Notes: a model not told the origin generated them from the sequence alone. Counted from the stretch's first letter, positions 32,118 to 64,000 are shown. The stretch is 64,000 nt of DNA from an uncultured Nitrospiraceae bacterium (GCA_964402555.1 CAYOCT010000001.1:204049-268048), one strand, 5' to 3'. A program made the numbers and translations.

Positions 32118-32201
32118 GTAGTCCCACTTTGCAGTGACACGAAAAGTTTAAGTTCTGTCTCCGGTTTACGCGTCCAGTAGGTTGTACTTGAGGTGAGGAA
32201 G

Positions 32202-43369: not shown

Positions 43370-43605
43370 GTATCCGCAACACTATGCTCGAAATTGCCCG
43401 CAAGGCAATCCTGCACCGGGCGTCTCTGGACGGATACGCGCCGGACGAGTACGACCCCGCGGAAGACGGCGAAGGATACGTCGTGTCGCTGCTCATTGCG
43501 CTTCGGCACTGGTGCGAAGCGCATGACATCGACTGGCGGGCGGACATCGAACGGGCAGAAGCCTTGTTCACTGAAGACTTGGCCGAGTCTGAAGCTATTC
43601 CCTGA
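43366..43605 (+). CDS. Hypothetical protein
   Basis: 79-aa ORF. Confidence 0.4.
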   Translation: MSIRNTMLEIARKAILHRASLDGYAPDEYDPAEDGEGYVVSLLIALRHWCEAHDIDWRADIERAEALFTEDLAESEAIP

Positions 43606-43708
43606 GACGCACACTCAGTGCTACACCCTGCAAGGGGCGGAACTGTGCCTTAGCCGGCATGGGGCCGCCCCTTGTCTTTCTCTCTCAACAGAAAGGAGTC
43701 CCAATGAT

Positions 43709-46685: not shown

Positions 46686-46783
46686 CCGCCGCACGATCAG
46701 GGCTCTGTGTTTCTGGGAGACGTCCCGCTGTTGGGATGTCTCCCTTTCTTCATTTCCGAAACCAAAACAAGGAGAGACAAATC

Positions 46784-48292
46784 ATGATTATGCAACAACT
46801 CGGCATTTACGGATGGAACGAAGCAGATGAGAATCTCGTTCTGGCTTCGCTTCTCACCGGCGACCCGCTCTTGCTTATCGGCAACCACGGGTGCGCCAAA
46901 ACCCATGTAGCCAACAAGGTAGCGCAGGCCCTGGGACGTAAGTTCCTGGTCTACGACGCCTCGAAGGCTATGTTCGAAGACGTGCTCGGCTACCCCAACA
47001 TCGAGCAGCTCAAGCACGGCGTCGTCGAGTACGTTCCAAGTCCGGTCACGATCTGGGACAAGGAACTCGTGCTCATCGACGAACTCAACCGCGCGGTACC
47101 GGAACTCCAGTCCAAGTGGCTGGAGATCATCCGTTCGCGCAAGATCATGGGATTTCCGACCCAGGTCAAATGGGTCTGGGCGGCCATGAATCCCATGAGC
47201 TACTCAGCCACGAACGCCCTCGACGCGGCCCTCGTTGGCCGGTTCGCGTTCTTCCTCTATCCGCCGGATGTGCTCCAGATGGATGAGGAAGACCGGATTC
47301 GTGTGGCGATGCACATCAACGGCGACGACGCGCCGAGCTTGTCCGAATGGACGGGTGGCGTGTCTGCGGGCACTGTGCCCAAGGCATGCGTGGCGGACGT
47401 CGGTGCCAAGATGCGTGATACGCTCATGGTGGCCGGTCGGCACTTCCTGCGTTTGCGCGAACAGATGTCGACGCTGGCCGAATTCCTGGCCAAGTTCGCC
47501 GACCTACTCATGCGGGAAACCAAGGGCGAGGTGGCCCTCGACGGCAGACGGCTGGGTTTCATTCACCGGAATCTGCTCGCCAACCGCGCCGTCGAATTGG
47601 CGAAAGCCGAGGTCTTTCAGGCCCAATTGCCGGGCTTCGTACAGTCGGCGCGCTACGTGGTGCAGTCCAGCATCCCGGTCGGACTTAACGACGAGGCGCT
47701 CAAACGGGAAGAGGCAGTGCACAAGATGGAGATCTGCTTCGACCTGCTTTCGAGCTACTTCGAAGAAGGCGCGGAACTGACTCGCGTGAACCTGGTCTAC
47801 GAGTTGTTCACCACGCCGGACCTGATGCGCAAGGCCGAACTGTTGCTAACGCAGCCGCTAGGCGAAATGGCGCTCTCCAAGGCGTGGACCGATCTCATGG
47901 CCGGGGAAAAGGATCTGACTCTGCTCGCCTACACAGCGTTGCAGGTCGAGGCGCGCCGACCGGGGACGATCCCGCAAGAGTTGCTTGCGTCGCTTTCCGC
48001 GAAGATCATGCCGGGAGAACTCAGCACCAAGTGTATCTCCCGGCTCGATGGCGACGCGGTCGAGTACATCGATGAAGTCGAACAACTGCTCGATCAAGGC
48101 ACGGACCTGGCGCGGCTCGTGGCTTACCACCGTGTCTCCGAACTGGTGGACACCGGCAATATCAACCCGCGCACGATCAAAGCTATCGGCGATGCGATCC
48201 TCGATGACATTCGCATCTTCGAAGCGTTGTTGGCAGGCAAGGCGTCTGACGCGACACACGCGATTCAATGCTTGGGAGGGAAGGCAGCATGA
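46784..48292 (+). CDS. MoxR-like AAA+ ATPase
   Basis: LLIGNHGCAKTHVANKVAQALG and LVLIDELNR. RBS AAGGAGAG. Confidence 0.7.
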   Translation: MIMQQLGIYGWNEADENLVLASLLTGDPLLLIGNHGCAKTHVANKVAQALGRKFLVYDASKAMFEDVLGYPNIEQLKHGVVEYVPSPVTIWDKELVLIDELNRAVPELQSKWLEIIRSRKIMGFPTQVKWVWAAMNPMSYSATNALDAALVGRFAFFLYPPDVLQMDEEDRIRVAMHINGDDAPSLSEWTGGVSAGTVPKACVADVGAKMRDTLMVAGRHFLRLREQMSTLAEFLAKFADLLMRETKGEVALDGRRLGFIHRNLLANRAVELAKAEVFQAQLPGFVQSARYVVQSSIPVGLNDEALKREEAVHKMEICFDLLSSYFEEGAELTRVNLVYELFTTPDLMRKAELLLTQPLGEMALSKAWTDLMAGEKDLTLLAYTALQVEARRPGTIPQELLASLSAKIMPGELSTKCISRLDGDAVEYIDEVEQLLDQGTDLARLVAYHRVSELVDTGNINPRTIKAIGDAILDDIRIFEALLAGKASDATHAIQCLGGKAA

Positions 48293-49668
48293 ATACTCTG
48301 CAAACCTTCAAACTCTGGCTTGAGCCGGACCGGGATATCCCGCAGTTTCGTCGTTTGCGTTGGGCAGCGGAAAGCGTGTCTGTCCAGGATGTGTTGCTGA
48401 CTGGGGTCCATCCCTGGTCGGGGCCGGACAAGCACAGCACACTGCCTGAAGCCATGCTACGAAATGTCAATGAAGAAACGGCAAGGCTCCCGGAACTGGT
48501 TCAATTCGGCTATTGTGGCGACGTGAATGTGCTCTCCGGCTACGCGTGGGACAAACCGTCGAGGTTCGATCGGGTCCTGCAGGCAATTCACGAACACGTC
48601 TACTTCGTGGATGACTTGTCGTACCTCGATCTGCTCAACATAGCCAAGGCGAGGTTGCGGAACATGTGGACGCATTCGACGGTCCGGGAAATGGCCAGAG
48701 ACGCTCACCCTGGATTCCAGGAGCTGCGGCAGTTTCTGAAAAGCAAGGACAAGCAGATCAAGCTATCCAGCTATGAGGACGTCGACCAGTATGACCTGGC
48801 CAAGGTGCTCACGCTGGACGACTTCGAGCAACGCGACAACCTTGTCATTTCGCACGCCATTCCCACGTTGAACTTCCGCAAAGCCGCGCTTCTGAGCAAG
48901 GTGACGGACGATCAAGGCCGGCTGCGCCTCGTGCCGGAAATCCGCCACGTGACCCTAACGGAAACGGCGCTGAAGCCGGACTATGTTCACACAGTCTGGC
49001 ATGTCGCGCGTGAGGGTTCGATGTGGCGCTTCCGGCCGGACATCGGCGACGCTAAGACTAAGCGGCAGCACACTCAGAAGTTTGCAGCCCAATGGCGGAC
49101 GGATGATGGGCGGTTGTGTTTCACAACCACCACGGAAAAACTCGTCGCGATGGTCGAGTGCAAAGCCGTTGAGCCGTCGTTTCCGAGCCTGAACTACAAC
49201 TCAGCGGAACATGGTCCTACAGCTTGCGCCGTCGTGGATTCCTCGCACGTCAAGGCCTTTCATATCGGGCGGTTTGCGCGCGCAGGAACCACTGGCGACC
49301 AGCTAAAGGATATCCTCCATAAATACGAGGTGTCCATGACCGGCAACAAGGATCAATTGCTCCAGAAATTGGCCAAGCTCGCAGCGACCAAATACCGGGA
49401 ACGATTGCCCGAGATGGATCGGTTCTTCGCACGGCATCGTTTTGTTCGCATGCAGAGTGCGCCGTCGAGTGTAGCCGAGTTGCCGCTCATTGAGGACCTG
49501 GCCTACCTGCGGAACCTCGTTCTGACGATGTACGCAGTCAAACATATGCGTGGCGATGCTATTCTCGAAGCCTCCCACCAGAACAACACGTACACGGACG
49601 AGGAACTGGCATTTGCCTTGGTCACCGGAAAGGTCGGCCTGCAAGGGGCCTTCCTGCGCGTCGCCTGA
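48289..49668 (+). CDS. Hypothetical 459-aa protein with SAP-like motif; third partner of the vWA-MoxR module
   Basis: ATGA overlap with the MoxR gene. GNKDQLLQKLAKLAA. Confidence 0.5.
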   Translation: MNTLQTFKLWLEPDRDIPQFRRLRWAAESVSVQDVLLTGVHPWSGPDKHSTLPEAMLRNVNEETARLPELVQFGYCGDVNVLSGYAWDKPSRFDRVLQAIHEHVYFVDDLSYLDLLNIAKARLRNMWTHSTVREMARDAHPGFQELRQFLKSKDKQIKLSSYEDVDQYDLAKVLTLDDFEQRDNLVISHAIPTLNFRKAALLSKVTDDQGRLRLVPEIRHVTLTETALKPDYVHTVWHVAREGSMWRFRPDIGDAKTKRQHTQKFAAQWRTDDGRLCFTTTTEKLVAMVECKAVEPSFPSLNYNSAEHGPTACAVVDSSHVKAFHIGRFARAGTTGDQLKDILHKYEVSMTGNKDQLLQKLAKLAATKYRERLPEMDRFFARHRFVRMQSAPSSVAELPLIEDLAYLRNLVLTMYAVKHMRGDAILEASHQNNTYTDEELAFALVTGKVGLQGAFLRVA

Positions 49669-49881: not shown

Positions 49882-50478
49882 TTGAGTCTTAGTGTGGAAC
49901 GAGAACGAATAAATAGCCTTGACGATCTTCTTGACGCGATTCACCCGTCGCGCGCGCACGATGTCTACCGACGGAAAATAGACGAAGCTTTGCGCACTTT
50001 CCCCTTCCAGTCGTTCCAAGTTGACAATTGGGGTTCGTGTCAATCTTTTGTTGCGCGTTTCTTTGCGCGTATCAATGGAGCCATCATGGGCCCCCAGTTT
50101 GAGGAAAGCCCCGACCTCGCCATGGTTACATTTCGCAATGTTTTCCGGTCAAGATACGGCGAGCTCCCCGAGAGAGCCTTATTCGAAAGAATCATCTTCG
50201 GCCACGAGAGTGGTATGAATGGCTTTGTGCGAGAGGCGGTCGACACCGCAGTCCAGTTCTTTGCACACACACATATAGCCAACCGAGTAGACCAATACAT
50301 GGACACTCTGTCTGACGATGAGTATTCCGCAGCGGGTGATGCGTACGTGGCGAAGTGGGGCCATCTTCTTCCAAGCGAGATGATTAGTAAAGGTTCACAT
50401 CATTATCCCCCAGCCCTGCGCAATGTTCTCAAACAGCACACCGAACTGCTCCTGAGACTGCGGAGCATCCCTAAATGA
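49882..50478 (+). CDS. Hypothetical protein, tandem paralog 1 (non-ATG start TTG at 49882 or GTG at 49894)
   Basis: About 60% identical to 50519..51106 (FDEALRTFPFQSF, GMNGFVR, AKWGHLLPSE). Confidence 0.5.
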   Translation: MSLSVERERINSLDDLLDAIHPSRAHDVYRRKIDEALRTFPFQSFQVDNWGSCQSFVARFFARINGAIMGPQFEESPDLAMVTFRNVFRSRYGELPERALFERIIFGHESGMNGFVREAVDTAVQFFAHTHIANRVDQYMDTLSDDEYSAAGDAYVAKWGHLLPSEMISKGSHHYPPALRNVLKQHTELLLRLRSIPK

Positions 50479-50518
50479 ACGAGCGGTGTGACTTGTAGAC
50501 CGCATGCAAGGACTTGGC

Positions 50519-51106
50519 ATGGAACAAGAAGGAAAAAGAATCAGCAGCCTTGAAGAGCTTCTTGAGACAATCGATCCCTCGCGTACATACGACGTGTTTC
50601 GACGGCGATTCGACGAGGCCTTGCGCACTTTTCCTTTTCAGTCGTTCCGGGTCAATGACTGGGCTTCCTGCGATCTTTTTGTCGCCAGTTTATTTGCACG
50701 AATCAATACCGTCCTTTTGCAGGGGGCATCGGACAACAACCTCGATTTGGGCTTGGTTACATTTCGAAACGTTTTCCGATCGATGTATGGAGATCGCCCC
50801 GAAAGGCTGCTGTACGAGAGAATCATTCATGGTCACGACAGTGGCATGAATGGCTTTGTACGCGACGCCATCGACGCGGCCGTGGAGTTTTGTGCTGCAG
50901 TGCCCATAGCCAATCGCGTGGACGAGTACATCGACAGCCTGTCGAACGACGAGTATGATACCGCCGCTCGATATTATTTGGCTAAATGGGGACACCTTCT
51001 TCCAAGCGAGATCACGGACAGGGGCTTGCCACGTTTCGCGCCACTTCTGCGCCAGTTCCTAAAGCAGCATCCGAGATCCGTCCTGCAGATGCGAAAAATC
51101 CGTTGA
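50519..51106 (+). CDS. Hypothetical protein, tandem paralog 2
   Basis: See paralog 1. Confidence 0.55.
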   Translation: MEQEGKRISSLEELLETIDPSRTYDVFRRRFDEALRTFPFQSFRVNDWASCDLFVASLFARINTVLLQGASDNNLDLGLVTFRNVFRSMYGDRPERLLYERIIHGHDSGMNGFVRDAIDAAVEFCAAVPIANRVDEYIDSLSNDEYDTAARYYLAKWGHLLPSEITDRGLPRFAPLLRQFLKQHPRSVLQMRKIR

Positions 51107-51172: not shown

Positions 51173-52024
51173 CTAAAGTGGCTGAATACTCGTATTCAGC
51201 ATCTCTACGTTCGTAAACATCTTTGGGAAAACGGAGAGAAGATATTCCTTGGGGGAACTTCCAGGAAGGCTCAACTGATGAGGAATTTCGCCGGCGGTCA
51301 GAACGGCAATGCCTGAATCACGCTGGACGAGCACAAACGCCAGTATCCAGTAATAACTTATGCGAGGAGTTGAAGAGTCCTTGCGCTCGAGAGCCCCTGT
51401 CGGCAATCCGTAAAGCTCCCTTACGTGCGATGTACCATTCTCTATGAGTGCGTCAATGGCCTTATATCCGTCCGTCCGTATAGGTGAGAAGACTTCGCAG
51501 CGTAAGGCTCTCTGTTTCTCTCTTAATACCCACGCGCCAGCGAGAGGGATAGCTTCCGCAGCCTTCTGGCCACACCAAAACGTGGAAGGAAGCAGATCGC
51601 CTGTAAGCCCGTTTATGATGAAGTCCCGGTCGTGACTTGACTCACATGCGTATTCGCCGTACTGCGTAGCCCGTTCCCATTGTTTGCCTCGCAATCTGTA
51701 GTATCGCCCCTCATTGCAGACAATTCCATGCGGGATCAGCCCTTCAAGCACACGCTCAATGCGGTCTTCGCCAATACCGAGGTACTCGTCGAGTTCGTCC
51801 AGCGTTGCCCGATCAAGAATCACCATGAGCTTCAGAACCGTGCGTTCTATCAGGCCGAGTGGCTGCGTATTCCGCTGTCGAACGGTGTGGGTCGCCTGCA
51901 AAATTGGGAAGATAACAGGAATAGCTTGCACGGGCGCCCTATGTCCGCTCTGAGGACAGTTGGCGAGAACGTTGTCCAGGGCCTTCTGCCACGGGTGGCG
52001 TTTCGAGGGCACTTCACTCGCCAT
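51173..52024 (-). CDS. wHTH (MarR-like) domain protein coupled to the SF1 helicase
   Basis: LIERTVLKLMVILDRATLDELDEYLGIGEDRIERVL. 11-nt overlap with the helicase stop. Confidence 0.55.
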   Translation of the reverse strand: MASEVPSKRHPWQKALDNVLANCPQSGHRAPVQAIPVIFPILQATHTVRQRNTQPLGLIERTVLKLMVILDRATLDELDEYLGIGEDRIERVLEGLIPHGIVCNEGRYYRLRGKQWERATQYGEYACESSHDRDFIINGLTGDLLPSTFWCGQKAAEAIPLAGAWVLREKQRALRCEVFSPIRTDGYKAIDALIENGTSHVRELYGLPTGALERKDSSTPRISYYWILAFVLVQRDSGIAVLTAGEIPHQLSLPGSSPKEYLLSVFPKMFTNVEMLNTSIQPL

Positions 52025-55000
52025 AGTTCTTTTCCCATACAGGGCAGACTTTCCCTGTATCCAACACATAATTCCTGTAGCGTCTAAGAACTTCCCGGCC
52101 CTTTTCGTGTCTGCTTAGTCTCTCATCACAGAGGGCGCTGACGTCTCCCACAAGAATCAACATGCATCGGGCCCTTGAAAAGGCAACGTTCATGCGCTTC
52201 AAGTCCAGGGCAAAATCAAGATAGGTTCCCAAGAACCCTCTACCTCTGCATTGTCCACATCTCTGTCCGCGGGCGGTCATGCCCTGTCCATGGCACCCTC
52301 GGCAGGGCTTCGGGCTGCGGGTAAAGGATACGATGATAATGTCGCATTCGCTGCCCTGGAAACTGTCGACTGAGTCTACAATCGGTCGTATTCGCTTGAA
52401 GGGGTACTTTGCATTACGCTGAAGCTGTCTCTCGATGGCGGCTTTTTGAGCCGCATACGGGGTGATTACGCCGATACTGACTTCTCGAGTGTGCTCAAAC
52501 GTTTCCGCTTTCTCAAGGATGCTGCAAACGATATTGGCCTCGAGGTCGTTGCGATAGCCTGTTCCGACCCGTTCTTCATGACGGTCCTCGCCATACTCCA
52601 TGGTCGAAATCAGGCATACAGGTTTGGTGAACTTGCCGAAGTTAATGGTACCGTGCGGGGCTTCGAGGGGGGATCTGAGATTTCCCTCATAGAACACTTC
52701 GCTGATGAACGCCCCGATGGTGCGATGCATGCGAAACTGCCGATCGAGCATCACGCCACATCCGCCGGCGAAACTTGGCCAGAGTTCCGCAAATAGACTT
52801 GAATCGAGCAAACAGAGCGGATCGTCATCGTTGGCGGCGGGACATGCCGGATGCCGTTCAGCGTCGGCAACACAATCCACATTCATGCTGCCGTTAGGCG
52901 GGAGCTGCATGTCGTCACCGATCAGGAGAAGCCTCCTGGCATGGAAGGCCGGAATGAGTGTCTCAGGCGTCGTGGCTTTTCCTGCCTCGTCGATGATGAC
53001 AAGGTCGATACTCTGAGGTCTTCCGTTATGCAGTTCCTTCCATGACGCAAGCCCGACACACGTTGCAAGAAACACCTGGACGTCATCCATCAGGAACTTA
53101 CTGATTTCTCCTGACTCACGATTCGCGATTACCTTGTCGCGCCATTCGCGTATGACCTCGTAAATGGACTGAGTACGCGCGAGCTCCGCTGCGTATTTCT
53201 CAACAAGGGCGTTCTGGTCGTCTTCCGTCCAGGATTCCAGGCTTCTGCCCTCTTCACTCAGAAGGTCGCGTAGCGGCATGAGGGGATTGAAGTATTCTTC
53301 ATCCAGGGCGCTGCGCTCCTTGCCGAACCGCTGCAGATCCCTGGAAAACTCCTCCTCAATGACGCGTTCACGCTGGGACAAATGGAGGTAGATCTGCTCA
53401 GTACTCTTCTGATGGGCAGCGGTCTCATGGGCGACAGCTTCGGCGGCAACCATCGCCTCATGTTTGCCAGAGAGAAGCGCGGCCTTTGCCTGGTCTGCCT
53501 TGTCCATGTAGGACTTGAGTTTCGTTTCTAGGGCTGTTTTTGAGGAGAGACGCTCAGAAAAGATGCCCGCAAATTGGGAGACGAGGGTAGGTATTTCTGT
53601 CAGGAACCGGCGGTTGTCAATGCGAGTCCGAAGCTGCGTTTGGCGTCGCGTGTTGGCGGCCAGAATCGCCTCTTGTGCGCTAACGCGCTTTTGGCACTCG
53701 TCCCGGCTGGTCTGTAGCGCGTTCATCCTTTGTGAATGGGCCGTATTCAACGCCAACTGATCGTTTCCGGCTTTTGCTCGAGCACTTGCCAATTGCTCAT
53801 GACGTATCCTCGTGGACTCGTCTCCTTTACGCTGGATTTGAGCAATCCGTGCTCGGTATTCCCGGAGTGCAAGAGTTACGCAGTACCAGGTGTCAACGCT
53901 GTGTTTCAGTTCTTTGCAGCGAACGCGAAGAGACTGGAACTTCTTGTCCGCGCGTTCTCCCAGTAACGAAAGCTCGCGATCGATGTCGAACGAGCATCTT
54001 TGGTCGATATCCTCGCGTCTCTCCGCCCGGGCGTAACGCAGCATACGGCACTTGTCCTCTTCCAGCCGTTCCATCACGTTCACGACGGCCTGATGCGTCT
54101 GGCTGCATACCAGGACACGGCCACCGCGCTCAACGATGTGGCGAACCACCTCGACAATGACGGAGGTCTTTCCGGTCCCGGGGGGACCTTTGACCAGAGC
54201 GACGGGGACTTCATCACTCAGCGCAAGCTGAACCGCCTCGGCCTGCTGTGGGTTTCCTGCAATGTGCGGGTCCTTGAACTCCAGGGAGGGGAGAATCCGG
54301 GGTCTTGCGGGCGGAGATACCATCGCGCGGAAGACAGGATGTTCCCAATTGATGGCATCACACCACTGGCGGACGTAGGCCTTCTGTTTTATTTCCGCGC
54401 CAGACAATCGTCTGGGCTGGGCTCGAAAGACTTCCGGGATACTTTCCTTGTCGACGGTGTTGGGGAAGCGCAATCGAAGGTACAGCGTTTTCCTGTTTTC
54501 AAAGCGGCCGCTTTTCAACTCTACCTCATTGATGTTGCGTCGTCCGCCAGGTCCTTGCTGAAGTGAGGAAATCGCAAGAGGCTCTCCTGCTTGCATTTGT
54601 TGCCCGGTGAACAACTGGAGGAGCGTTCCCTCAGGCCAGGGCATTTCCCCGCTGCTCTTCCACTCGGGTGTCGGCAGGACTTTGAAGTCATAATCGATAT
54701 ATCCCGGAGTCTCGCCAACCACGGCGGCGCGATCCCCGAGGAGCAAGGCCGGGCTCTGCTCGTCAGGCTGGATGAAATGGTCGAGGCATTCGAGAAGGCC
54801 CTTCCAGTGTTGCGCGGCCATCTTGCAGGCAACGTTGTCGAGGAGGAAACCTCTGGCTGACGACGCCTTTAGTACATCATTCAGAAACGTCTCTACGGCA
54901 ACAGGGCTCGACACGTCGCATCTTCGGAGCCAATCAAAGACGGTAACGTTTGAAGGGTCGATCTCAACGTGTCTGACGCCGTGCTCTCCGTTCTCCTTGA

Positions 55001-55886
55001 GAACAAAGGCGTTGTTGCGCAGATCGTAGTTTATGGGCTGCAGGCCCGAACCTTTACAGAGGTTGCACTTACCTGTTCCATGACAGGGCCGGCAAGGATT
55101 TAACCCTCTTCCACCGCAGGGGCGGCAGGATACGGAGCCCTTCCCACTACATGAACGACAGTCATGGTCATGGGGCCGGAAGTTACCCGATCCCCCGCAT
55201 TTGTGACACGTGAGCCTCCCGCCGCCTGAACATCTCTTACAGACAAGAATACCTGTTCCATCGCACACAGTGCAATGAGCGGATCCTCTACACTTGGAGC
55301 AGGTCGAAGCGTACCAGGATTCTGGTGGTTCAAACGGAAGCCAACGCAAGGGATGAAAGGACACTGGAAAGTCGCCGGAACGAGCGGGATGCACCGGGCA
55401 CTGAAGGAGATATGCAATGGGGACGCGTTCATTCGCCATTATTCGGTCTGCGATGAGCAATCGAGTTCCTGCTGACGGCGTTACGGTCAGCGTCAACTCT
55501 TTAATGCGGTAAAATAGAATCATACTGGCTTGGGACTTCTTGCTGAGAGGGCTGCCTTTCTTGACAGGGCTCACGTAGGCCCGAGTCCCAACGACGTTCG
55601 TGACTTCGCCAACATCGGTAGGCGTAACACCCTCTTCCCAGGAGGGACGGCAATCAAAAAGACGGGCGTCTTTCCTGTCCTCGATACCGATTGCGTAATA
55701 CCCTCCAGGGACCGGCTGGGTCACTTCGCTGCACCACATTTCGGCATCCGGGGTGTGCAGGAGTTCGCATAGAAGGGCTTCCGGATCCTGGATGTCCCGT
55801 ACTCCACGAGCGGCAAGAATGGGAACTATGTCCTGCGAGAAACGCGTTATCAGGCCCCTGGGGAGCACGATGGGCACCCCGGTCAT
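52014..55886 (-). CDS. Upf1/Dna2-like SF1 helicase (AAA_11/AAA_12) with DnaJ-type CxxCxGxG zinc-finger arrays and a coiled-coil insert
   Basis: GPPGTGKTS, DEAGKATTPE, QFRMHRTIGAFISEVFY and DSFQGSECDIIIVSF. CxxCxGxG repeated about 8 times N-terminally and again near the C-terminus. RBS GAGGAGGA before the ATG at 55886. Confidence 0.8.
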   Translation of the reverse strand: MTGVPIVLPRGLITRFSQDIVPILAARGVRDIQDPEALLCELLHTPDAEMWCSEVTQPVPGGYYAIGIEDRKDARLFDCRPSWEEGVTPTDVGEVTNVVGTRAYVSPVKKGSPLSKKSQASMILFYRIKELTLTVTPSAGTRLLIADRIMANERVPIAYLLQCPVHPARSGDFPVSFHPLRWLPFEPPESWYASTCSKCRGSAHCTVCDGTGILVCKRCSGGGRLTCHKCGGSGNFRPHDHDCRSCSGKGSVSCRPCGGRGLNPCRPCHGTGKCNLCKGSGLQPINYDLRNNAFVLKENGEHGVRHVEIDPSNVTVFDWLRRCDVSSPVAVETFLNDVLKASSARGFLLDNVACKMAAQHWKGLLECLDHFIQPDEQSPALLLGDRAAVVGETPGYIDYDFKVLPTPEWKSSGEMPWPEGTLLQLFTGQQMQAGEPLAISSLQQGPGGRRNINEVELKSGRFENRKTLYLRLRFPNTVDKESIPEVFRAQPRRLSGAEIKQKAYVRQWCDAINWEHPVFRAMVSPPARPRILPSLEFKDPHIAGNPQQAEAVQLALSDEVPVALVKGPPGTGKTSVIVEVVRHIVERGGRVLVCSQTHQAVVNVMERLEEDKCRMLRYARAERREDIDQRCSFDIDRELSLLGERADKKFQSLRVRCKELKHSVDTWYCVTLALREYRARIAQIQRKGDESTRIRHEQLASARAKAGNDQLALNTAHSQRMNALQTSRDECQKRVSAQEAILAANTRRQTQLRTRIDNRRFLTEIPTLVSQFAGIFSERLSSKTALETKLKSYMDKADQAKAALLSGKHEAMVAAEAVAHETAAHQKSTEQIYLHLSQRERVIEEEFSRDLQRFGKERSALDEEYFNPLMPLRDLLSEEGRSLESWTEDDQNALVEKYAAELARTQSIYEVIREWRDKVIANRESGEISKFLMDDVQVFLATCVGLASWKELHNGRPQSIDLVIIDEAGKATTPETLIPAFHARRLLLIGDDMQLPPNGSMNVDCVADAERHPACPAANDDDPLCLLDSSLFAELWPSFAGGCGVMLDRQFRMHRTIGAFISEVFYEGNLRSPLEAPHGTINFGKFTKPVCLISTMEYGEDRHEERVGTGYRNDLEANIVCSILEKAETFEHTREVSIGVITPYAAQKAAIERQLQRNAKYPFKRIRPIVDSVDSFQGSECDIIIVSFTRSPKPCRGCHGQGMTARGQRCGQCRGRGFLGTYLDFALDLKRMNVAFSRARCMLILVGDVSALCDERLSRHEKGREVLRRYRNYVLDTGKVCPVWEKNYGE

Positions 55887-56917
55887 GCGATCTCCTCCTC
55901 GAACGCCAGCACTCTCACCACGTGACATGGAGAAGAATTGGAGGGGTCCAATCGCTGAATTGGCCCGTACGGAAACCCGTATGGTGCAGGGGGGGCATCC
56001 CCCATGTTGGTCACGCCGAGCAGTGAGAGCGCACGTCTTGCCTCCTGTGTGATTTTCACAGTGACGCCTGCCCCGTGTCAGGCGCTTCGTTCGACGCGTG
56101 CTCGCCGTCGCTCATTTCTGAATCCCCACGCGTCCCCAAGATCGCCTTCTTGGCAATGACATATCGCACATTATCATAGGTTCTCCGGCCGGAAATCATG
56201 GCGGATTCAGACGTGAAGTGCAACATGCGCCGAGCGGACGGGCGCCCGAGTGTTCTTGAGGCGGCCGAGGCATCTTCGATGCGCCCGCTGTAGCGAATTG
56301 CCCAACGATGCTTTGCAACATAACGCCCCCGGCCAGTTCCCGCGCTGGCCTCGCCCTGCCCAAGGGACTAGACAGGTCGTAGGAACCGCGTCCGGCCTAT
56401 GCTTGTCGTGTCCGACGAGCATCACAATCACCGAGGGGCTGACAAAGTAATTTGAGTAACAGCCCGGCGGCAATCTCCACGTAAGTTCTTGCCCCGTAAC
56501 GGGCTTCTCGAAAAGGAATCGCGCCTCTCGGGCACGCTCCGCGTATTTCGCGATCATACTGGGCGCCAACGAGCATCTTGCCCCTACGATCCCACGCTCA
56601 AACCGCATTCCCGCCGCTGACGCAACGCTCTACCGGTTCGATGTGAAGAAGAGCGCGGCCACGGACAGATCGTGCTGATTTATCCTCACAAGCCGTGGTA
56701 AGATAGCCGGGTTGTTGATACGGTCGATCTGCCCTGCGAAGGGCATGGCCGGCCTTGAAGACTCATCTTCCGAGATAAACTTGATTACCGGCCAGACAGA
56801 CTTCAACTGCCTTGCCGCGTTGGGATGCGCGTTTATAAGAATGAGGTCTCAGGTGCGGCGAACGACCCTGCGGGAGGCAGAAGGCCTCTGGTATGCGGGA
56901 AGGAACGTGACACGATC

Positions 56918-58147
56918 ATGTTTAGAGAAAAGAAAGACGCCCTGGACGAGCGGCGAGGGTCGCCTTCTGAGAGAATCGACTTCAGAAGCGTATCCTTGGG
57001 CGTTCTTTGTGAACACATCGCCAAGGGAAGCGTTGCTGCCTTAGACGAATTTCTGACAAATCGGCGTGTGTTTCCGGGCCGGGCCGAACCGCCCAAAGCG
57101 CTCCTATTCGGCCCGTACGTGGAATTGATCCGACAGAAGACTCTCAAGGCAGGCTGGTGGCAATCCAAGGGAACGGAGTTTGTTGACCGTTCCGTGGAGC
57201 TTCTGATTGCGCGCTTCACCAATCTTCCGTCCAGCGAGACAGCGCCTGACAGTGCCGCACCAGAGGAGAACCAAGAGGACGCGGAAGTGGATGGCTGCAA
57301 CGTTGATCGTCGCGTCTATTTCAAAGCGTTCCTCGCGTCCCTTACGAAGCACTCTAGAGAAAACTCAGTAGCGGGTGAACTCGAACGCGAGCGGCGCGAG
57401 GCGTTTCTCATGCAGGGTTTTCTGTGGCGTCAGTTCTTCTATTGCTTACAGGAGGCCGGACGCGAAGCGAATCAGCTAATGAACCGATATGCTTGGGATT
57501 TCGGATCTGGCCGGATCATCGTGTGGTTCCCGAAATCGTTCAGTGGAAGGCCCCGCAAGCTATGGCTTGAAGAGCATGTTGGCCAGCCTGACTTGACCAA
57601 AGATGGAGAACTCGAACGCATTCAGGCGATCATCGACGAACATTTCGGACGACAAATGCAGTTTTCGATAGACGAGCACTTCGCGGATAGATTAGCGGGA
57701 AGCTTGTCGCCGCCTGACGCCGGGCTCAAAGTTGAAGACGGGGGCACGATGCGTCACCTGATTGCCCATGAAAAGGCTGCTGAAGCCAAGAAACTGCCGC
57801 CAGCGATTCGTAGTCTGGGCTACGACAGAATTGTCGAATTGGTGATAACCATTCTGGACAACATCGTCTCCGAATTGTGCTCAGACGTAGAGATCGCGCG
57901 GCGCTTCGGGCTTAGCACAGCCACATTCAGCCGCTTCGCAGGACGCCAGCGCTGGGATAAATGGCGTGAGGACCGCGAGAATCCGCCGCCACATTTGGCG
58001 GTGAACTCGGCTCGAGCTCTGAGGAAGCACCGGGACTTCATTGAAACCGCTCGTGAGATGGGGCTGATCGACGCGAAACAAGCTATAGAGGCGAAACAGA
58101 ATACTGAGGTGAAGCAAGATACTGAGGTAAAACCCGATGGCACATGA
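56918..58147 (+). CDS. Hypothetical protein with C-terminal HTH
   Basis: DVEIARRFGLSTATFSRFAG. Confidence 0.5.
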   Translation: MFREKKDALDERRGSPSERIDFRSVSLGVLCEHIAKGSVAALDEFLTNRRVFPGRAEPPKALLFGPYVELIRQKTLKAGWWQSKGTEFVDRSVELLIARFTNLPSSETAPDSAAPEENQEDAEVDGCNVDRRVYFKAFLASLTKHSRENSVAGELERERREAFLMQGFLWRQFFYCLQEAGREANQLMNRYAWDFGSGRIIVWFPKSFSGRPRKLWLEEHVGQPDLTKDGELERIQAIIDEHFGRQMQFSIDEHFADRLAGSLSPPDAGLKVEDGGTMRHLIAHEKAAEAKKLPPAIRSLGYDRIVELVITILDNIVSELCSDVEIARRFGLSTATFSRFAGRQRWDKWREDRENPPPHLAVNSARALRKHRDFIETAREMGLIDAKQAIEAKQNTEVKQDTEVKPDGT

Positions 58148-58808
58148 ACTCTATTTTCTTCCCATTCTCCTCGACGCGCTTGATTCGACGCAGTGCCGGG
58201 AGGCCCTGCGGGATGCTTTCTCTAAGATCATCTCGCTGGGTCGGGAACCGGGATATGAACTTGGCTACGCCCGGTTCAAGGAATTTATGAAGATGGTCGG
58301 CGAAGGGCCTTCGTCGGATGAGCAATCGGACTCGGACAACGCAGTGGTTCAATTCCTTATCTCATTCTGTGAACAGATGAGCCCACGTGGAGCCGTGAGC
58401 GCGGGTCTACAAACGGATCCGATCCTTTACAAACGTTGCCAGAGACTGGTGGGCGAGCTTCAACAACTGATGCCTGCCCAAATCACTTTGGAGATCGTCT
58501 TGGAAAGAGGAGATGAAGTTCTTGCCCGTCTCGATGCATGCCAAGGAGGGACACTCGGACGGGTTAGACGTATTCGCCCTGGGACCTACCGCTTGAGTCT
58601 GTCCACGGGGCGGATGCTGTGGGAGGGGATTCTAACGAGGGCGGACTTGCTGTGTGAAGGCCAGCCACTGGCAATGGCAGCCGATGAGAACGGGGCGGCC
58701 GGCGAGCCGGCACGCGAGATCGCGGTGCTGAGTGGCGAGATCGTCATGAAAGTCTATCGGGGTTTGGAGAGCGGCGTGTTGGAGATTGTGCGGATGCTAA
58801 CAGGATGA
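58137..58808 (+). CDS. Hypothetical protein
   Basis: Overlaps both neighbours. Confidence 0.45.
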   Translation: MAHELYFLPILLDALDSTQCREALRDAFSKIISLGREPGYELGYARFKEFMKMVGEGPSSDEQSDSDNAVVQFLISFCEQMSPRGAVSAGLQTDPILYKRCQRLVGELQQLMPAQITLEIVLERGDEVLARLDACQGGTLGRVRRIRPGTYRLSLSTGRMLWEGILTRADLLCEGQPLAMAADENGAAGEPAREIAVLSGEIVMKVYRGLESGVLEIVRMLTG

Positions 58809-60496
58809 TGGGCAGACCGGCGAGCGAAAACAAGATCGGACGGGTGCCGACGTTGCTTGTAGTACAGTCGGACCAACGGGCGTTTCTATGCACGGTAACG
58901 GCGGAGCACCGCGAGAATGCGGGGGAACAGCGGGTTCATTTTTCCGGCGGCGCGATAATTGCACCCGCTGTGGCCGACCACGTCGTCTCGGTAGTAGTTC
59001 CTTTGGTGGAAGGCGTGTGTCGGTTGCTGGGTGAGTCGGTTTCTCGATGGGACATTGTTTATGAGTCAATTGAGGCGGCGGCGGCGTGCGAAACACCGTT
59101 GTCTGTGTCCGGGAACTCGGGAGATCTATCGCTGTTTCTCGTCCTCTTGTCGTCGGCTCTACAGCTTCCCCTTCGCCAAGATGCAGTTGCCACGGGGCTC
59201 TTTACGTCAGCCGCGGGGGGCATTGGATCCGTAGGAAGCATTCCAGAGAAACTTCACGCGGCAATAGCCGATTCGCGCATGCGGCTTTTTCTGCACCCGC
59301 CTTTTGGCGTGGACAAATCGTTGGATGCCTTGGTTCCTGATGAGTACAGCCGGATAGAGGAAGCTGTGGCGGATGCCCGGAGGAAGGCTATACGCCTTAC
59401 ACCGGTGAAGGATGTGGCCGATCTTGTTCGCGAGGTACTTGACGAAGAAAGCATAGTGTTGTCCAGTCTTCATAAGGGCTATTTCGACCGGGGATTTGAC
59501 CGGATCTCGCCGGATACGCCGGTTACGAGCGCCGCTCGCCATCTCCTCGCAGGAAATCAAACGCGGTTCTGGCATTGTCTCGGGAACGCCCTGAGGTCTC
59601 AGGAACCGGAACGTGTTAGCCTGTTGTTGTCCGCGTATCTTCAATTCCACGAACGGAAAGAGTCTTACCCTTCGCGTGTTGGGGCCCAACTTATCCAGCG
59701 CCTTCGCACGCTTCCGCCCGTTATGCGACGTGCGTTGCCGAAACCTCTCGTGCCTTCGTCTATGTGCTTTGCCGTAGCTCGTTACGCTTTCGAAACGGAT
59801 ACGGAAGACGCCCAGGCGCTCTTGAAGGCGAACAAAGGCCAGACTTGGTTGAATGAAGGTGAGTCCGGACCTGAAGATCCGGAGGTGCCTGCCGCGAAAT
59901 TGGGTGGGGACGATGCCGATCAGACTTTGGACGCTATTCTGAATCAGTTGAGCGGGGAGAACGTCGTCAAGGCTGCCGGACGTGACATAGACAACGCGTG
60001 TGTTTCCTTCTCGACGGACAGCAGTCTCGCTTCCTCAGCAGACGCCTTCACGGAAGTAGTGACGTCGTTCTATCTCCATTTGCTCTCCGAAACCGGCGTC
60101 CTGCTGACAAGAATCAATTCCAGTGCGGCGGAAAGGGATGCTCTGCGCTTGGTGGAACAGGCATTCCATAAGCAAGGAGGTCTAGAAGGAGCACGTCGAG
60201 AGGCGGAAATAGGTGTAAACGGGGGCCTTCGAGCTGTTCTGGATGCTATGGCCGATTACTATAGGACCCAGGCGGTGGAAAACCATATCATGTTCGTTCT
60301 GGAAACGGCGTTGGACGATCGGGACCGGCCGGCCAAGGTAGCTCTCATAAGAGCATTCCTGCGCCGGTTCGAAGGGCTGCTTCCGCCGGACATTGCCCAG
60401 ACCGAGCCCGAAGACCTCGTTGGTCAATGGAAAGTCATTGCTCACGCTTACGCAAGATCGTTGGATTCATTGAAGAACCTTATCCGAAGACTTTAA
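58805..60496 (+). CDS. Lon-like (S16) protease-domain protein with a long C-terminal helical region
   Basis: SVSGNSGDLSLFLVLLSSALQLPLRQDAVATGLFTSAAGGIGSVGSIPEKLHAA aligns with the Lon proteolytic core (Ser in GNSGD, Lys in IPEK). Confidence 0.6.
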   Translation: MMGRPASENKIGRVPTLLVVQSDQRAFLCTVTAEHRENAGEQRVHFSGGAIIAPAVADHVVSVVVPLVEGVCRLLGESVSRWDIVYESIEAAAACETPLSVSGNSGDLSLFLVLLSSALQLPLRQDAVATGLFTSAAGGIGSVGSIPEKLHAAIADSRMRLFLHPPFGVDKSLDALVPDEYSRIEEAVADARRKAIRLTPVKDVADLVREVLDEESIVLSSLHKGYFDRGFDRISPDTPVTSAARHLLAGNQTRFWHCLGNALRSQEPERVSLLLSAYLQFHERKESYPSRVGAQLIQRLRTLPPVMRRALPKPLVPSSMCFAVARYAFETDTEDAQALLKANKGQTWLNEGESGPEDPEVPAAKLGGDDADQTLDAILNQLSGENVVKAAGRDIDNACVSFSTDSSLASSADAFTEVVTSFYLHLLSETGVLLTRINSSAAERDALRLVEQAFHKQGGLEGARREAEIGVNGGLRAVLDAMADYYRTQAVENHIMFVLETALDDRDRPAKVALIRAFLRRFEGLLPPDIAQTEPEDLVGQWKVIAHAYARSLDSLKNLIRRL

Positions 60497-60516
60497 CAGC
60501 AGATGGAAGGATGCCG

Positions 60517-61095
60517 ATGAGCGCCATAGACTCTCTGATAGCGGAACTGAGCGAACAGGCAATTCTCAACAATGCAAGCAGGAAGTACGACGACGCGAGG
60601 ATTCAGTATGCCCTGCCTTCGATTACCGTGCGTGATTTTGACGAGTTTACCGAGATCGTTAGCGACTACGTGCAACGCACATACAGCACCTGCATGATTC
60701 ATGGCGGCTGGATTTCCACGGCGAACGCCGCAGGCATTGGAAAGGAGATCCTCAACAATTCAGGCGGTCGTCGAGGCGCAGACGTAATGACCTACTACAT
60801 GGATTCTAAGGAAGGTATCAATGGAGGACTGCGCCAGTGCTTGGACACTCTTTGCGAAGGTATGAAGCGGCAGGCAGTGGAGCGATATACCCGCGATGTT
60901 TTCGACCGATACTTGCCACCGGATAACAGAGACCTATTAGAGCACATGGTAGTTGAATTCATCCAGCGGTACGACAAGCTTCTTCCTGGAATCGACCGGA
61001 CGCGGCCACATTGGTACGCTCGCAATCTTGAGACGCTGATCCGCGCCGTGCTGCATGCCACAGAAGATATGGCCAGCATTTACCGCCGACTCTGA
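60517..61095 (+). CDS. Hypothetical protein
   Basis: RBS GGAAGG. Confidence 0.45.
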   Translation: MSAIDSLIAELSEQAILNNASRKYDDARIQYALPSITVRDFDEFTEIVSDYVQRTYSTCMIHGGWISTANAAGIGKEILNNSGGRRGADVMTYYMDSKEGINGGLRQCLDTLCEGMKRQAVERYTRDVFDRYLPPDNRDLLEHMVVEFIQRYDKLLPGIDRTRPHWYARNLETLIRAVLHATEDMASIYRRL

Positions 61096-61492
61096 AACCC
61101 AAGAAAGAGTCAAGCGTGCTCTGAAATCCCTCGCTCTGATCTGAAAAACATCCGGCGTCTATGGGGGATGCCCAGAGTCATCGGCGCCAATAGGATGTTT
61201 CCTGGCGGATCATGGGTAAGGCGCAGAGACCGCTGCCTCAACAGCCTGCCTCAGCGAACACATTCATCCATGCCTTCCGATAGGATTCATCGCAAAATGA
61301 AAGCGGGCTGAACCGGCTCCCAATCCCGACCGCAATGACCGGCCAGTGCATGTTGCTTCTGGAACAGCATTCGCTTCTTTCAAAGGCCGTAAACGCCTTT
61401 GTCCCTTGAAACCGATTTCCCTGATCCTGCCGAGGAATCGCTTCTGAAACTTCTAATTTGTCTCCTCCGCTAATACTCAAAAGGAGGAATTT

Positions 61493-63970
61493 ATGCCGAT
61501 AGACCGTCAGATGTTGCCGCAAATCCATTCCAGCATGCTGGCCGCCAAGGCGCGAATCATCTTTGACAAGGAGAGGACGAAGGGGTGTTTACCTGAAATC
61601 TCCTCGACACCGGTTGAGCTGGAACCGCCCTTTCAGGCGCTTGTGGACCCAGAGGACCTGCTCTACGTCGCCGAACAGCCCCCCTTCACTCCAACGATGC
61701 CGCCCATCAAGGAGGACTGGATTCGGCTCAAGATATGGGTGCCCCCCGGACAGGAGTGCGACTGGCTCAGGAATGAACACGTCGTCAAGCAGTTTGTCGC
61801 CCTCAAGCACAGGATCACGTTCGAAATCACTGGAAACCGCGACGGGATTTCTCTGGCCCATCTGTGCCACAAGGAGGATGAGCCCGTAGTGCGTGCCGCA
61901 ACATGCGGTTTCTTTCCGGACTGCGAATTCTCCGTGTGCCGCGATCACCCGCTGGATCTCCTGCCGGAGGCTGCATGGCAAAGCGCTGTCTTCGATGATT
62001 TCTACACGCCGCCTCCCTACAGTCATCTGTTGACGAGGCCAAGCGAACTTAAGCTGTCGCCGCTTGAATCACTGGTGAACGCTTTGAGCATCCTTGCCCC
62101 ACCGAGCGTGGGAGTCTACCAAGTCGTCCTTCAGCCGACGCCCCACAATCACGCGTGGTCCTGCAATGTGGAACTTCTCATCGACCTCGAGTACCTGATG
62201 AAGTTGCACAGCGGCCACCCTGTACAGCAGCGTTTCACGCAGCAAGCACCGTCGGGCCAACTCAACAACATGGCCAATGACGTCGAAACCAAATCCCACC
62301 CTGACAAGCCGTTCTTCTGCGCAGCTGTGCGCGTAGGTCTCCTGGGGCACACAAATGGCGGCCCATCCAACACGCTGCGCGCACTAACCCCCTTCATGAA
62401 CCTGTTTCAGCATGGCAAACGCCCGCTCGAAACACTAACGCAGGACGATTATCTTCGACACGTCTCGTCCCGACAAACGCGCGACATGTTCAGACTTGGC
62501 GTGACATACCGGGCCGGGGCTCTGCTCAACAGCGCAGAGGTCTCCGGCCTGCTGCACGTTCCTCCTATGCAAGTACTCATACGCCGTCGTATCGATATCT
62601 CTGTTGCGAATTCCTTTCCCGCTCGTGGCGAAGCGTTACGGGGGGGCACATGCATCGGCATCGCCACGTCGGCAGAAGAAAGCACGAAGGTGTGTATACC
62701 CGACGAACGGCGTTGCTCCCATGTTTACATTCCCGGCAAACCCGGGACAGGAAAGACCTGCGCGATGATTCATGCCTGCGGCGAGGATATTGCCCATGGG
62801 CACGGTATTGCGATTATCGACCCGCATGACGATCTTTGCGCAGGGGTCATGAACCGCATTGCCGAGCGGGACCTCGACAGGGTCATCTATTTCGATCCGG
62901 GGCACCCGACACTTGTGCCGCTCTGGAATTTCCTTGCCCCGCAGAGTGGCCAACTTGCCGACCGCCAAGCAGATGATCGCCTGAGTGCCTTTACTCAGGT
63001 AACGACCGGCTGGGGGCATCGACTTGAAACGCTCATGCGTCAGGCGTTCTTCGGCCTCATCCAAACGGGCGCAGGCACCCTGCTCGATGTGTCCCGGCTC
63101 CTGTCAACTGACACCCCCGAGAGGGAGCGGATACGTCTGCGGATCTTAGAGGTCGTCGAAAACGAAAAGGCGCGGTACTTTTGGGAACACGAACTCAAGA
63201 CATACCGCAAGGAGGATTTCGCTCCCGTGCAACACAAATTGAGCAAACTCTTGCTTTATGAGACAGCGGCTTTGATGTTTTCGCAACTGGAAAATCGCTT
63301 CGATTTCCGCGAAATGATGGACACCGGCAAGATCTTCATCGCCAACCTGGCAAACGTGGGCAGCGAAGCGCGCGACATTTTGGGCAGCTTGCTGCTGTCC
63401 GTGTTCCATCTTGCCGCGCTGAGCAGAAGTAATATCCCCGACCACGCCCGCAAACCATTCCATGTCTATGTAGATGAGGCGCACCGCTTTGTAACTCCAG
63501 CCATGGAAGACATGCTGGCCGAAACGCGCAAGTATGACTGTAGCCTCACACTTGCACACCAGTACTTAAGTCAGTTCCAGGAGGCGAAGCGGGTCGATGC
63601 GCTGGGTGTTGTGGGTACGACAATTGCCTTCAATGTCGCCGCTACGGATGCGCCGCGGATCGCCAAATTCTTGGGAGGCCAAGTGTCCGCCGAGGATTTG
63701 ACCACGCTTGCACATCGGGAAGCCATCGCTCGAATCGGTAACGACGTGGTTCGGATAATGACGCCTAATCTTAGCGAGATACGTGACACATCGATGGGTG
63801 ATCGGGCAAAGCAACTTTCCTATGACAGATACTACAAACCCGTGCAAGAAGTCCGGGATGCCGTCCGTAGGAGGATCAAGACTTCGACTAAGTGCTCACC
63901 TGCCGGACCGCATCGTTCTCGCGGGGAGATCTCGATGAAGGGATATCAGTATGACGAGTTCCCTTCCTAA
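61493..63970 (+). CDS. FtsK/HerA-superfamily P-loop ATPase (TraD/VirD4- or DUF87-like)
   Basis: Walker A HVYIPGKPGTGKT. Walker B HVYVDEAHRF. Confidence 0.7.
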   Translation: MPIDRQMLPQIHSSMLAAKARIIFDKERTKGCLPEISSTPVELEPPFQALVDPEDLLYVAEQPPFTPTMPPIKEDWIRLKIWVPPGQECDWLRNEHVVKQFVALKHRITFEITGNRDGISLAHLCHKEDEPVVRAATCGFFPDCEFSVCRDHPLDLLPEAAWQSAVFDDFYTPPPYSHLLTRPSELKLSPLESLVNALSILAPPSVGVYQVVLQPTPHNHAWSCNVELLIDLEYLMKLHSGHPVQQRFTQQAPSGQLNNMANDVETKSHPDKPFFCAAVRVGLLGHTNGGPSNTLRALTPFMNLFQHGKRPLETLTQDDYLRHVSSRQTRDMFRLGVTYRAGALLNSAEVSGLLHVPPMQVLIRRRIDISVANSFPARGEALRGGTCIGIATSAEESTKVCIPDERRCSHVYIPGKPGTGKTCAMIHACGEDIAHGHGIAIIDPHDDLCAGVMNRIAERDLDRVIYFDPGHPTLVPLWNFLAPQSGQLADRQADDRLSAFTQVTTGWGHRLETLMRQAFFGLIQTGAGTLLDVSRLLSTDTPERERIRLRILEVVENEKARYFWEHELKTYRKEDFAPVQHKLSKLLLYETAALMFSQLENRFDFREMMDTGKIFIANLANVGSEARDILGSLLLSVFHLAALSRSNIPDHARKPFHVYVDEAHRFVTPAMEDMLAETRKYDCSLTLAHQYLSQFQEAKRVDALGVVGTTIAFNVAATDAPRIAKFLGGQVSAEDLTTLAHREAIARIGNDVVRIMTPNLSEIRDTSMGDRAKQLSYDRYYKPVQEVRDAVRRRIKTSTKCSPAGPHRSRGEISMKGYQYDEFPS

Positions 63971-64000
63971 AGACGAACTTGACGGAATTCTGAACGAAAC

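Follow-up and report, generated by a model that had tools for sequence, protein, structure and literature searches.

A predicted ATP-independent Lon-type protease with two helical domains in the core of a putative multi-gene conflict system from an uncultured Nitrospiraceae bacterium

We analysed a four-gene operon that encodes a predicted stand-alone Lon-type protease in a 64,000-nucleotide (nt) stretch of DNA from an uncultured Nitrospiraceae bacterium (GCA_964402555.1, CAYOCT010000001.1:204049-268048; hereafter the window). An initial annotation, made from the sequence, had placed four mutually overlapping genes at 56918-61095 and proposed that the product of the third contains a Lon-like proteolytic core. 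All four open reading frames (ORFs) are present where they had been placed, on the plus strand:

56918-58147, plus strand: g1, 409 amino acids (aa), a predicted helix-turn-helix (HTH) protein; the longest ORF starts at 56825.
58137-58808, plus strand: g2, 223 aa, a candidate protease substrate or tether.
58805-60496, plus strand: g3, 563 aa, a predicted stand-alone protease of the Lon type (Ser-Lys dyad) with two helical domains attached.
60517-61095, plus strand: g4, 192 aa, the helical domain as a separate protein, with the longest ORF starting at 60427.

These genes form a tight operon, although the overlaps hold only for the first two junctions: g1 shares 11 nt with g2, and g2 shares 4 nt (ATGA) with g3, whereas g3 and g4 are separated by a 20-nt spacer that carries GGAAGG. 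In related loci, the junctions between core genes likewise overlap or are spaced by less than 25 nt. The exact products of g2, g3, and g4 are recorded in the protein collection, all of them unnamed or 'hypothetical'; the g1 product from the 56918 start has no exact record there. Orthologues of g1 align from about position 56981, which fits the 56918 start. A motif scan found no Walker A motif or convincing membrane segment in g1-g4, and Pfam found no AAA domain in these proteins. For g1, g2, g4, and the helical parts of g3, there are no family names in Pfam, NCBIfam, PADLOC, or PHROGs.

The N-terminal part of g3 has the features of a Lon (S16) proteolytic domain, as judged from the family profile, Foldseek, and residue conservation:

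58826-59440, plus strand: residues 8-212 of g3, Lon (S16) proteolytic domain.
59117-59119, plus strand: codon of Ser105 (in GNSGD), the predicted catalytic Ser.
59192-59197, plus strand: Thr130-Gly131, the counterpart of the Lon 'TG' motif.
59249-59251, plus strand: codon of Lys149 (in IPEK), the predicted catalytic Lys.

Taken by itself, the window protein gives faint signals. It has no Pfam match, even at E ≤ 1, and the NCBIfam model for archaeal LonB matches residues 8-214 with an E value of 7e-5, scoring 21.6 bits against a cut-off of 516.6. Searching the PDB with the single sequence yields marginal matches to Lon protease domains in which Ser105 and Lys149 fall on the catalytic Ser and Lys. 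A word-indexed protein search, with g3 alone or with a 91-sequence profile, returned g3 itself and one relative with 63% identity. An exhaustive HMMER search found 685 cluster representatives of the g3 family at E ≤ 1e-3, 294 of them at E ≤ 1e-30; among the best 150 representatives listed, nearly all are full length at about 560 aa. Public data contain hundreds of diverged family representatives, and the proteins of the operon are nameless in the four family collections given above.

To define the family, we used an alignment of 91 sequences that are 25-63% identical to the window protein. Its only invariant columns are Gly103, Ser105, Lys149, and Tyr288, and Thr130-Gly131 is conserved in more than 90% of the sequences. 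The catalytic dyad is also kept in a set of 151 diverged representatives, where Ser is found in 146/146 at position 105 and Lys in 148/149 at position 149; the Thr130 column holds 140 Thr and 9 Ser. When the 91-sequence profile is compared with the PDB, it matches the proteolytic domains of M. jannaschii and A. fulgidus LonB with E values of 2e-10 to 2e-9 (2.4e-10 for the best match to a solved Lon protease domain). The A. fulgidus match spans residues 8-211, and matches follow to mitochondrial, Thermus, E. coli, and Bacillus Lon. Pfam Lon_C (PF05362) matches 47/85 family members at E ≤ 0.1, with a best E value of 1.8e-7, and 25 of the 85 members scanned also match ChlI (PF13541), which we take to be a Lon-related family.

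The fold agrees with these matches. An AlphaFold2 model of g3 built with the 91-sequence alignment has a mean predicted local distance difference test score (pLDDT) of 90.5 and a predicted template modelling score of 0.83. Its N-terminal 210 residues superimpose on Lon domains in the PDB with Foldseek E values of 1e-9 to 1e-6 and template modelling scores of 0.70-0.78, normalised to the Lon domain. The best matches by both sequence and structure are 1xhk, 1z0e, and 3k1j. The proposed alignment of the g3 N-terminus with the Lon proteolytic core, with Ser in GNSGD and Lys in IPEK, is therefore borne out by profile and fold. For Lon_C the outcome is split: the window protein itself has no Pfam match, and the assignment stands through the family members, the profile, and the fold. 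The proposed absence of an AAA module also holds, since g3 has no AAA family match, no Walker A motif, and no such module in the model.

Taken together, the sequence and model evidence identifies g3 as a predicted Lon-type (S16) endopeptidase that does not depend on ATP and uses Ser105 and Lys149 as its dyad. Because it lies below the curated thresholds, yet has family-level matches to Lon, g3 is a distant branch of the Lon superfamily, outside the curated family. Its falling below every curated Lon threshold could also mean that g3 is catalytically dead, a Lon-shaped scaffold as in RadA or BrxL-like proteins, but the Ser, the Lys, and the Thr-Gly are essentially invariant across relatives that are only 25-35% identical. 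Given this invariance at such low identity, a dead enzyme is not expected, and we consider it extremely improbable.

The remainder of g3, some 350 residues, is all helical in the AlphaFold2 model, in keeping with the long helical C-terminus noticed earlier. It consists of two domains:

59444-59839, plus strand: residues 214-345 of g3, middle helical domain, defined from the models, with the invariant Tyr288 in the motif YPxxFG.
59906-60493, plus strand: residues 368-563 of g3, C-terminal helical domain (~190 aa), with g4, g4', and p210 as paralogues.

A low-confidence linker (residues 350-367) follows the middle domain. Modelled alone, the helical part reaches a pLDDT of 90.4. Neither the solved structures in the PDB (best E value 0.28) nor the predicted viral structures in BFVD (best E value 0.33) include a significant neighbour of the helical domains, and a profile search found no PDB relative of g4.

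The C-terminal domain of g3 has relatives close at hand. It matches g4 in BLASTP with an E value of 4e-17. A second type of paralogue, g4', lies directly after g4 in other loci and is present twice in the window:

49882-50478, plus strand: g4' copy a.
50504-51106, plus strand: g4' copy b, a tandem duplicate that is 57% identical to copy a.

In hhalign comparisons, g4 and g4' are related with 98.5% probability, and g4' and the g3 C-terminal domain with 99.0%. The closest paralogue of the g3 C-terminal domain is p210, a protein of about 210 aa that in related loci is always encoded after a gene we call g5 (hhalign 99.8%, E 2.7e-30). Each system holds four copies of the ~190-aa helical domain: the one attached to g3, and g4, g4', and p210.

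We compared the operon with about 50 related loci, from a Hydrogenedentota metagenome-assembled genome and metagenome contigs, in which ORFs were labelled by their best reference-protein match; a scan of species genomes contributed one locus, the one in the Hydrogenedentota assembly. The order g1-g2-g3-g4-g4' is kept across these loci wherever the contig extends, with few exceptions. In nearly all of them, g1 lies directly upstream of g2 and g4 right after g3. One exception is L018, where g4 and g4' are upstream of g1. In L041, a single 732-aa ORF (733-2931) joins the N-terminal 165 residues of g2, g3 minus its first ~40 residues, and a C-terminal domain that is of the g4 type rather than the g3 type, being 70% identical to the g4 of another locus; this fusion may have arisen naturally, by deletion between paralogous domains, or may be a chimera of the assembly. 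A fragmented g3 gene in L049, whose g4 and g5 are near-identical to those of the window, was considered as a sign of hypervariability and rejected: the two sequences align collinearly, with 90% of nucleotides identical, and therefore the g3 gene call in L049 is simply broken.

The wider neighbourhood is also shared. In many loci, a WD40 propeller protein and a Ser/Thr kinase with TPR repeats are encoded upstream of the core, with genes for a HerA-like ATPase and small uncharacterised proteins ahead of them. Downstream of the core, most loci carry g5, p210, and an archaeo-eukaryotic primase (AEP; Pfam AEP-TOTE, found in L004, L005, L009, L030, L049, and L051). The first of these downstream genes lies in the window:

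61493-63970, plus strand: g5, an 825-aa FtsK/HerA/TraD-like P-loop ATPase with weak Pfam, NCBIfam, and PADLOC matches.

The weak matches of g5 are to TrwB_AAD_bind, SXT_TraD, mad8, DndH, and HerA. Its Walker A motif, GKPGTGKT, is at residue 415, following a soluble N-terminal region of ~390 aa; there is no transmembrane segment, and a profile search against the PDB gave no match. The closest relatives of the window are 90-92% identical in nucleotide sequence over 57466-64000, and because these relatives show the g5-p210-primase continuation, it probably lies just beyond position 64000 here as well.

From this synteny, we conclude that a large, so far nameless multi-gene system, apparently of the conflict type, has g1-g2-g3-g4-g4' as its constant core. 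The window is a defence island, and this content supports the conflict or defence setting that had been proposed for the operon. Literature searches found no description of the system. ATP-independent Lon-type proteases in conflict systems are a kind already known, and the possibility that the cluster as a whole is a new system is a real one.

Two small partners are encoded directly ahead of the protease. Near its C-terminus, g1 has a conserved motif, LGxxxLxxL...FGLSxATFSRFAG, that resembles a helix-turn-helix in alignments of 6 and 22 orthologues. The motif aligns with an ArsR-type regulator, without significance, and individual members have scattered sub-threshold matches to HTH_7, Sigma70_r4_2 (in 1/22), HTH_20, and similar HTH families; a profile search of g1 against the PDB gave no significant match. 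The C-terminal HTH claimed at the outset is thus weakly supported, by the conserved motif and by matches to HTH families that all stay below threshold. We consider g1 a predicted transcription factor that would be released or controlled by the protease.

The second partner, g2, is helical in its N-terminal half and rich in beta structure in its C-terminal half; it contains the motif PGxYxVxLxTGRxIW. No relative of g2 was found in Pfam, MazF and DUF2080 included, or in the PDB. It also carries an essentially invariant motif, L-x-(M/L)-A-A-(D/E)-T, which reads L-x-M-A-A-D-T in the window. In an alignment of 35 g2 sequences, Ala181 is conserved in 33/35 and Ala182 in 35/35; their codons occupy 58677-58682 on the plus strand.

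How does g3 compare with Lon proteins whose function is known? It shares with LonB and LonA the fold and the G-x-S-A-D / T-G / K active-site motifs. It differs from both in having neither an AAA+ module nor a membrane anchor, and its protease domain is N-terminal, not C-terminal. By sequence and predicted structure, the protease domain is nearest to archaeal LonB, yet it is not a canonical Lon, and it is not BrxL. The initial annotation had drawn an analogy to BrxL of bacteriophage exclusion (BREX) systems, which is likewise a Lon-related protein in a defence system. This analogy is not supported: BrxL is an ATP-dependent, DNA-binding AAA+ ring, whereas g3 has no ATPase domain, and no PADLOC model, BrxL included, matches g3 at E ≤ 1. 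Nor do the neighbours look like BREX, with no PglZ among the scanned ORFs of the window and only an Eco57I-like methyltransferase, 43 kb away. Other ATP-independent Ser-Lys peptidases with the Lon fold make specific cuts, among them YlbL of B. subtilis (PDZ-Lon) and VP4 of birnaviruses, the latter cleaving Ala-Ala-type sites. Judged from the literature, these differ from g3 in having a PDZ domain and membrane anchor (YlbL) or in being part of a viral polyprotein (VP4), and both occur in other gene contexts.

The closest working analogue is the CalpL-CalpT-CalpS system, although the SAVED domain and the CRISPR (clustered regularly interspaced short palindromic repeats) association do not carry over. 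That regulated ATP-independent Lon-type proteases such as CalpL transduce signals in bacterial immunity has been recognised only recently. In the anti-sigma factor CalpT, its partner, CalpL cleaves the sequence 'LAAA' between two alanines, and this cut starts the release of the ECF-like (extracytoplasmic function-like) sigma factor CalpS (bioRxiv 10.1101/2024.05.08.593097). In both systems, a non-ATPase regulatory domain is joined to a Lon protease domain that is ATP-independent and carries a Ser-Lys dyad, and in both the protease gene adjoins genes for two small partners, one of them putatively DNA-binding. The residue three before the catalytic Ser, an auto-inhibitory Asp in ATP-dependent Lon, is Ser in most g3-family members, as it is in CalpL. 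The Ala-Ala cut site of CalpT also has a possible counterpart in the invariant Ala-Ala of g2.

The differences are equally clear. In place of SAVED, g3 has two helical domains (Pfam finds no SAVED match), and this system has three extra paralogues of the protease's C-terminal domain. At about 400 aa, g1 is not recognisably a sigma factor as CalpS is, and g2, in contrast to CalpT, has no MazF or DUF2080 match. The type III CRISPR association of CalpL-CalpT-CalpS is not seen here; no Cas families occur among the Pfam-annotated genes of the window or related loci, and CRISPR arrays were not scanned for in the loci. No CalpL chain is among the 47 PDB sequences matched by the g3-family profile at E ≤ 1.

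By analogy with CalpL, the reading that we tentatively favour, giving it somewhat less than an even chance, is a site-specific proteolytic switch in which g3 would cut g2 at Ala-Ala and free the HTH protein g1. In such a switch, the helical domains would pair with one another and tether g3 to its partners, possibly including the TraD/HerA-like ATPase g5. The protease would be held inactive until an upstream sensor fires; candidate sensors are the WD40, Ser/Thr kinase-TPR, and HerA-like proteins in related loci, and in the window perhaps a MoxR-type ATPase and its partner (described below). Once active, g3 would make one specific cut in the co-translated g2, most likely between Ala181 and Ala182, and possibly also cut g1. 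Cutting g2 would free or activate g1 and so alter transcription of the neighbouring modules, following the logic of CalpL-CalpT-CalpS or ImmA-ImmR with another sensor domain. The close coupling of the core genes, their constant order, and the g2-g3-g4 fusion in L041 agree with this reading. If this is true, the system would be a second, CRISPR-independent case of protease-controlled transcription in conflict systems, and it would offer a concrete, easily tested cleavage site.

Several points weigh against such a switch. The Ala181-Ala182 cut site is proposed from conservation and one analogy, DNA binding by g1 is weakly suggested by a motif and sub-threshold matches, and the adaptor or sensor role of the helical domains is a guess about domains that have no known relatives. 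In L015 (550-3877), a Ser/Thr kinase-TPR gene is followed directly by g3, with neither g1 nor g2; although this is the only such locus seen, the protease can therefore exist without these two partners. Finally, genes for a ribonucleotide reductase and an integrase are often found close to where the cluster ends, and such ends fit a mobile-element function as well as defence.

These ends are found in three lineages (L005, L049, and L051-L053), where a ribonucleotide reductase and a tyrosine recombinase lie downstream. The cluster in L005 ends with a class I/II-type ribonucleotide reductase and then a tyrosine recombinase (11560-14518), and that in L051 with anaerobic NrdD/NrdG and then a tyrosine recombinase (9839-14002), which suggests that in these two loci the cluster sits at the edge of an integrative element. 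Downstream of p210, L049, the closest relative of the window, has a separate gene for a 441-aa VirD4/T4SS-DNA_transf-like protein (7360-8685); this gene shares 73% nucleotide identity with the segment of g5 that encodes the ATPase (window 62772-63842), indicating a partial duplication of g5.

The cluster might accordingly be read, instead of as host defence, as the backbone of an integrative element, in which the primase replicates DNA, the TraD/VirD4-like ATPases transfer or package it, and an integrase completes the set; g1-g3 would then be a repressor/protease induction switch, like ImmR-ImmA, or g3 a maturation protease. In the three lineages, g5, the second VirD4-like gene, the AEP primase, the ribonucleotide reductase, and the tyrosine recombinase all follow the operon, and RadC, GP88, and DUF2201 genes lie just upstream in the window. 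On the other hand, g5 has no membrane anchor and only weak similarity to coupling proteins, and the primase belongs to AEP-TOTE, a family defined from conflict systems. Three loci (L007, L013, and L031) carry g1-g4' with the WD40, kinase, and HerA-like genes but have no g5, primase, or integrase, and a motif scan of a viral contig collection found no member of the g3 family. We consider a mobile-element backbone rather unlikely.

The association of p210 with g5 bears on a different possibility, a split ATP-dependent protease in which g3 docks through p210, g4, and g4' onto a hexameric g5 and, once triggered, degrades proteins broadly and so arrests or kills the cell, as in abortive infection. 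A canonical Lon protease domain does work atop a hexameric ATPase, g5 follows the operon in most loci, and p210, which never parts from g5, is the nearest kin of the g3 C-terminal domain. But by class g5 is a DNA pump (FtsK/HerA/TraD) rather than an AAA+ unfoldase, and several loci have no g5. The known ATP-independent Lon-domain proteases (CalpL, YlbL, and VP4) are also site-specific, which argues against broad degradation. A split protease therefore strikes us as improbable, and the site-specific switch remains the reading we prefer.

What distinguishes the g3 family from CalpL is that the same protease module is joined to a wholly different regulatory part, two helical domains of which one is repeated as three genes, within a conserved cluster of ~12-15 genes that includes a kinase, a WD40 protein, several FtsK/HerA-like ATPases, and an AEP primase. 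A bolder reading, which we think unlikely as a whole, is that the helical domain, present four times per system, is a new homotypic adaptor comparable to death-fold domains, and that in a widespread, undescribed immune or mobile-element system it couples the Lon-type protease to a kinase/WD40 sensor module, the TraD/HerA-like ATPase, and the AEP primase. If true, this would be a new wiring of a proteolytic signal in prokaryotic conflict systems.

The wider cluster also resembles TOTE and MoxR-vWA conflict systems, in that related loci have an AEP-TOTE primase, a TPR-bearing kinase, a WD40 propeller, and several NTPases, and the window has a MoxR ATPase. The primase and the kinase TPR repeats are features of the related loci and are not visible within the window, which ends at 64000. 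In contrast to TOTE systems, OB/CSD (cold-shock) and TBP components were not detected: Pfam gives no match to OB/cold-shock or TBP-like families among the small conserved proteins of the related loci. Two eLife surveys of MoxR-vWA and related conflict systems make no mention of a Lon protease in them.

The MoxR gene and its partner lie upstream of the g4' copies:

46736-48292, plus strand: MoxR-type AAA ATPase (Pfam AAA_5, AAA_3).
48268-49668, plus strand: 466-aa partner of the MoxR ATPase, found in the same relative position in L004.

The ATPase and its partner are 79% and 57% identical to the L004 genes, and in both loci copies of the paralogue follow. The MoxR pair likely belongs to the system, with less certainty than the core genes. 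Directly upstream of the MoxR gene are genes for a GP88-like protein (43394-44323), a RadC/JAB protein (44396-44896), and a DUF2201 vWA-like protein (44893-46200). GP88, RadC, and DUF2201 genes typically occur in conjugative elements. It could be the DUF2201 protein, and not the 466-aa protein, that partners the MoxR ATPase.

Between the g4' copies and g1, the window has two features that had been linked to the operon:

52014-55928, minus strand: MkoA-like superfamily 1 (SF1) helicase, 1304 aa, matching Mokosh MkoA (PADLOC E value 2.6e-98).
55929-56917, no strand assigned: 989 nt with no detectable gene, upstream of g1.

Beside the helicase is a gene for a 298-aa protein with a weak match to the N-terminus of MkoB; no PLD domain was found in this MkoB-like partner. 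Together, the Mokosh-like pair spans 51173-55928 on the minus strand. The helicase has an N-terminal region of ~550 aa with Cys-rich, CxxC-type repeats at about residues 210-300, as read from the translation.

The initial annotation had suggested that the helicase and the operon share a control region of about 1 kb and thereby form one system. Their divergent orientation and the 989 nt between them, where no gene is detectable, would suit this idea, but the helicase is MkoA-like, has its own small partner gene, and adjoins the operon in none of the ~50 related loci. In L004, the MoxR gene, its partner, and the paralogue copies run up to g1 with no intervening helicase. We rejected the helicase as part of the system on this synteny, and a joint system of the two is very improbable. 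Because the pair is absent from the related loci and the flanking genes in L004 are uninterrupted, the most plausible reading is that it is a separate defence system that was inserted into the larger cluster. A Mokosh-like system inside another system is a caution against equating adjacency with partnership.

The stretch between them gave no Pfam, plasmid, or Rfam match and no notable repeats; compared with the related loci, it showed no conservation and no kinase or WD40 remnants, and its longest reading frame has no homologue. On the minus strand at 56056-56806, there are three consecutive ORFs, two of them in one frame and split by a single stop codon. The GC content at third codon positions in these minus-strand ORFs is 0.66-0.71, as high as in real genes, and they have no homologue. 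Given this gene-like composition, the stretch may hold an orphan or decayed gene. The description of the stretch as non-coding is thus upheld in that no gene is detectable and qualified by the composition of the minus-strand frames. Long regions upstream of g1 also occur in other loci where no kinase gene directly precedes it, and these are compatible with a promoter or operator region. In the window, the 989 nt probably hold the operon promoter together with the junction of the inserted Mokosh-like pair.

The rest of the defence island has several further genes at greater distance from the operon. On the minus strand are genes for an AlbA_2/Schlafen-HATPase_c_4 protein (5308-6954) and a DUF3644 protein (6980-8044), followed by the 1132-aa Eco57I/MmeI-like methyltransferase (10255-13653), whose gene overlaps that of a 1134-aa PLD-SNF2 helicase (13644-17048). 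A 699-aa HerA-like ATPase, also encoded on the minus strand (24494-26593), resembles the product of the HerA-like gene found upstream of the operon elsewhere. Lastly, 32193-33290 encodes a Cdc6/Orc1-like AAA protein whose C-terminus is a winged helix (Pfam Cdc6_C); this is unusual for a bacterium, and the gene may be one that serves the replication of a mobile element.

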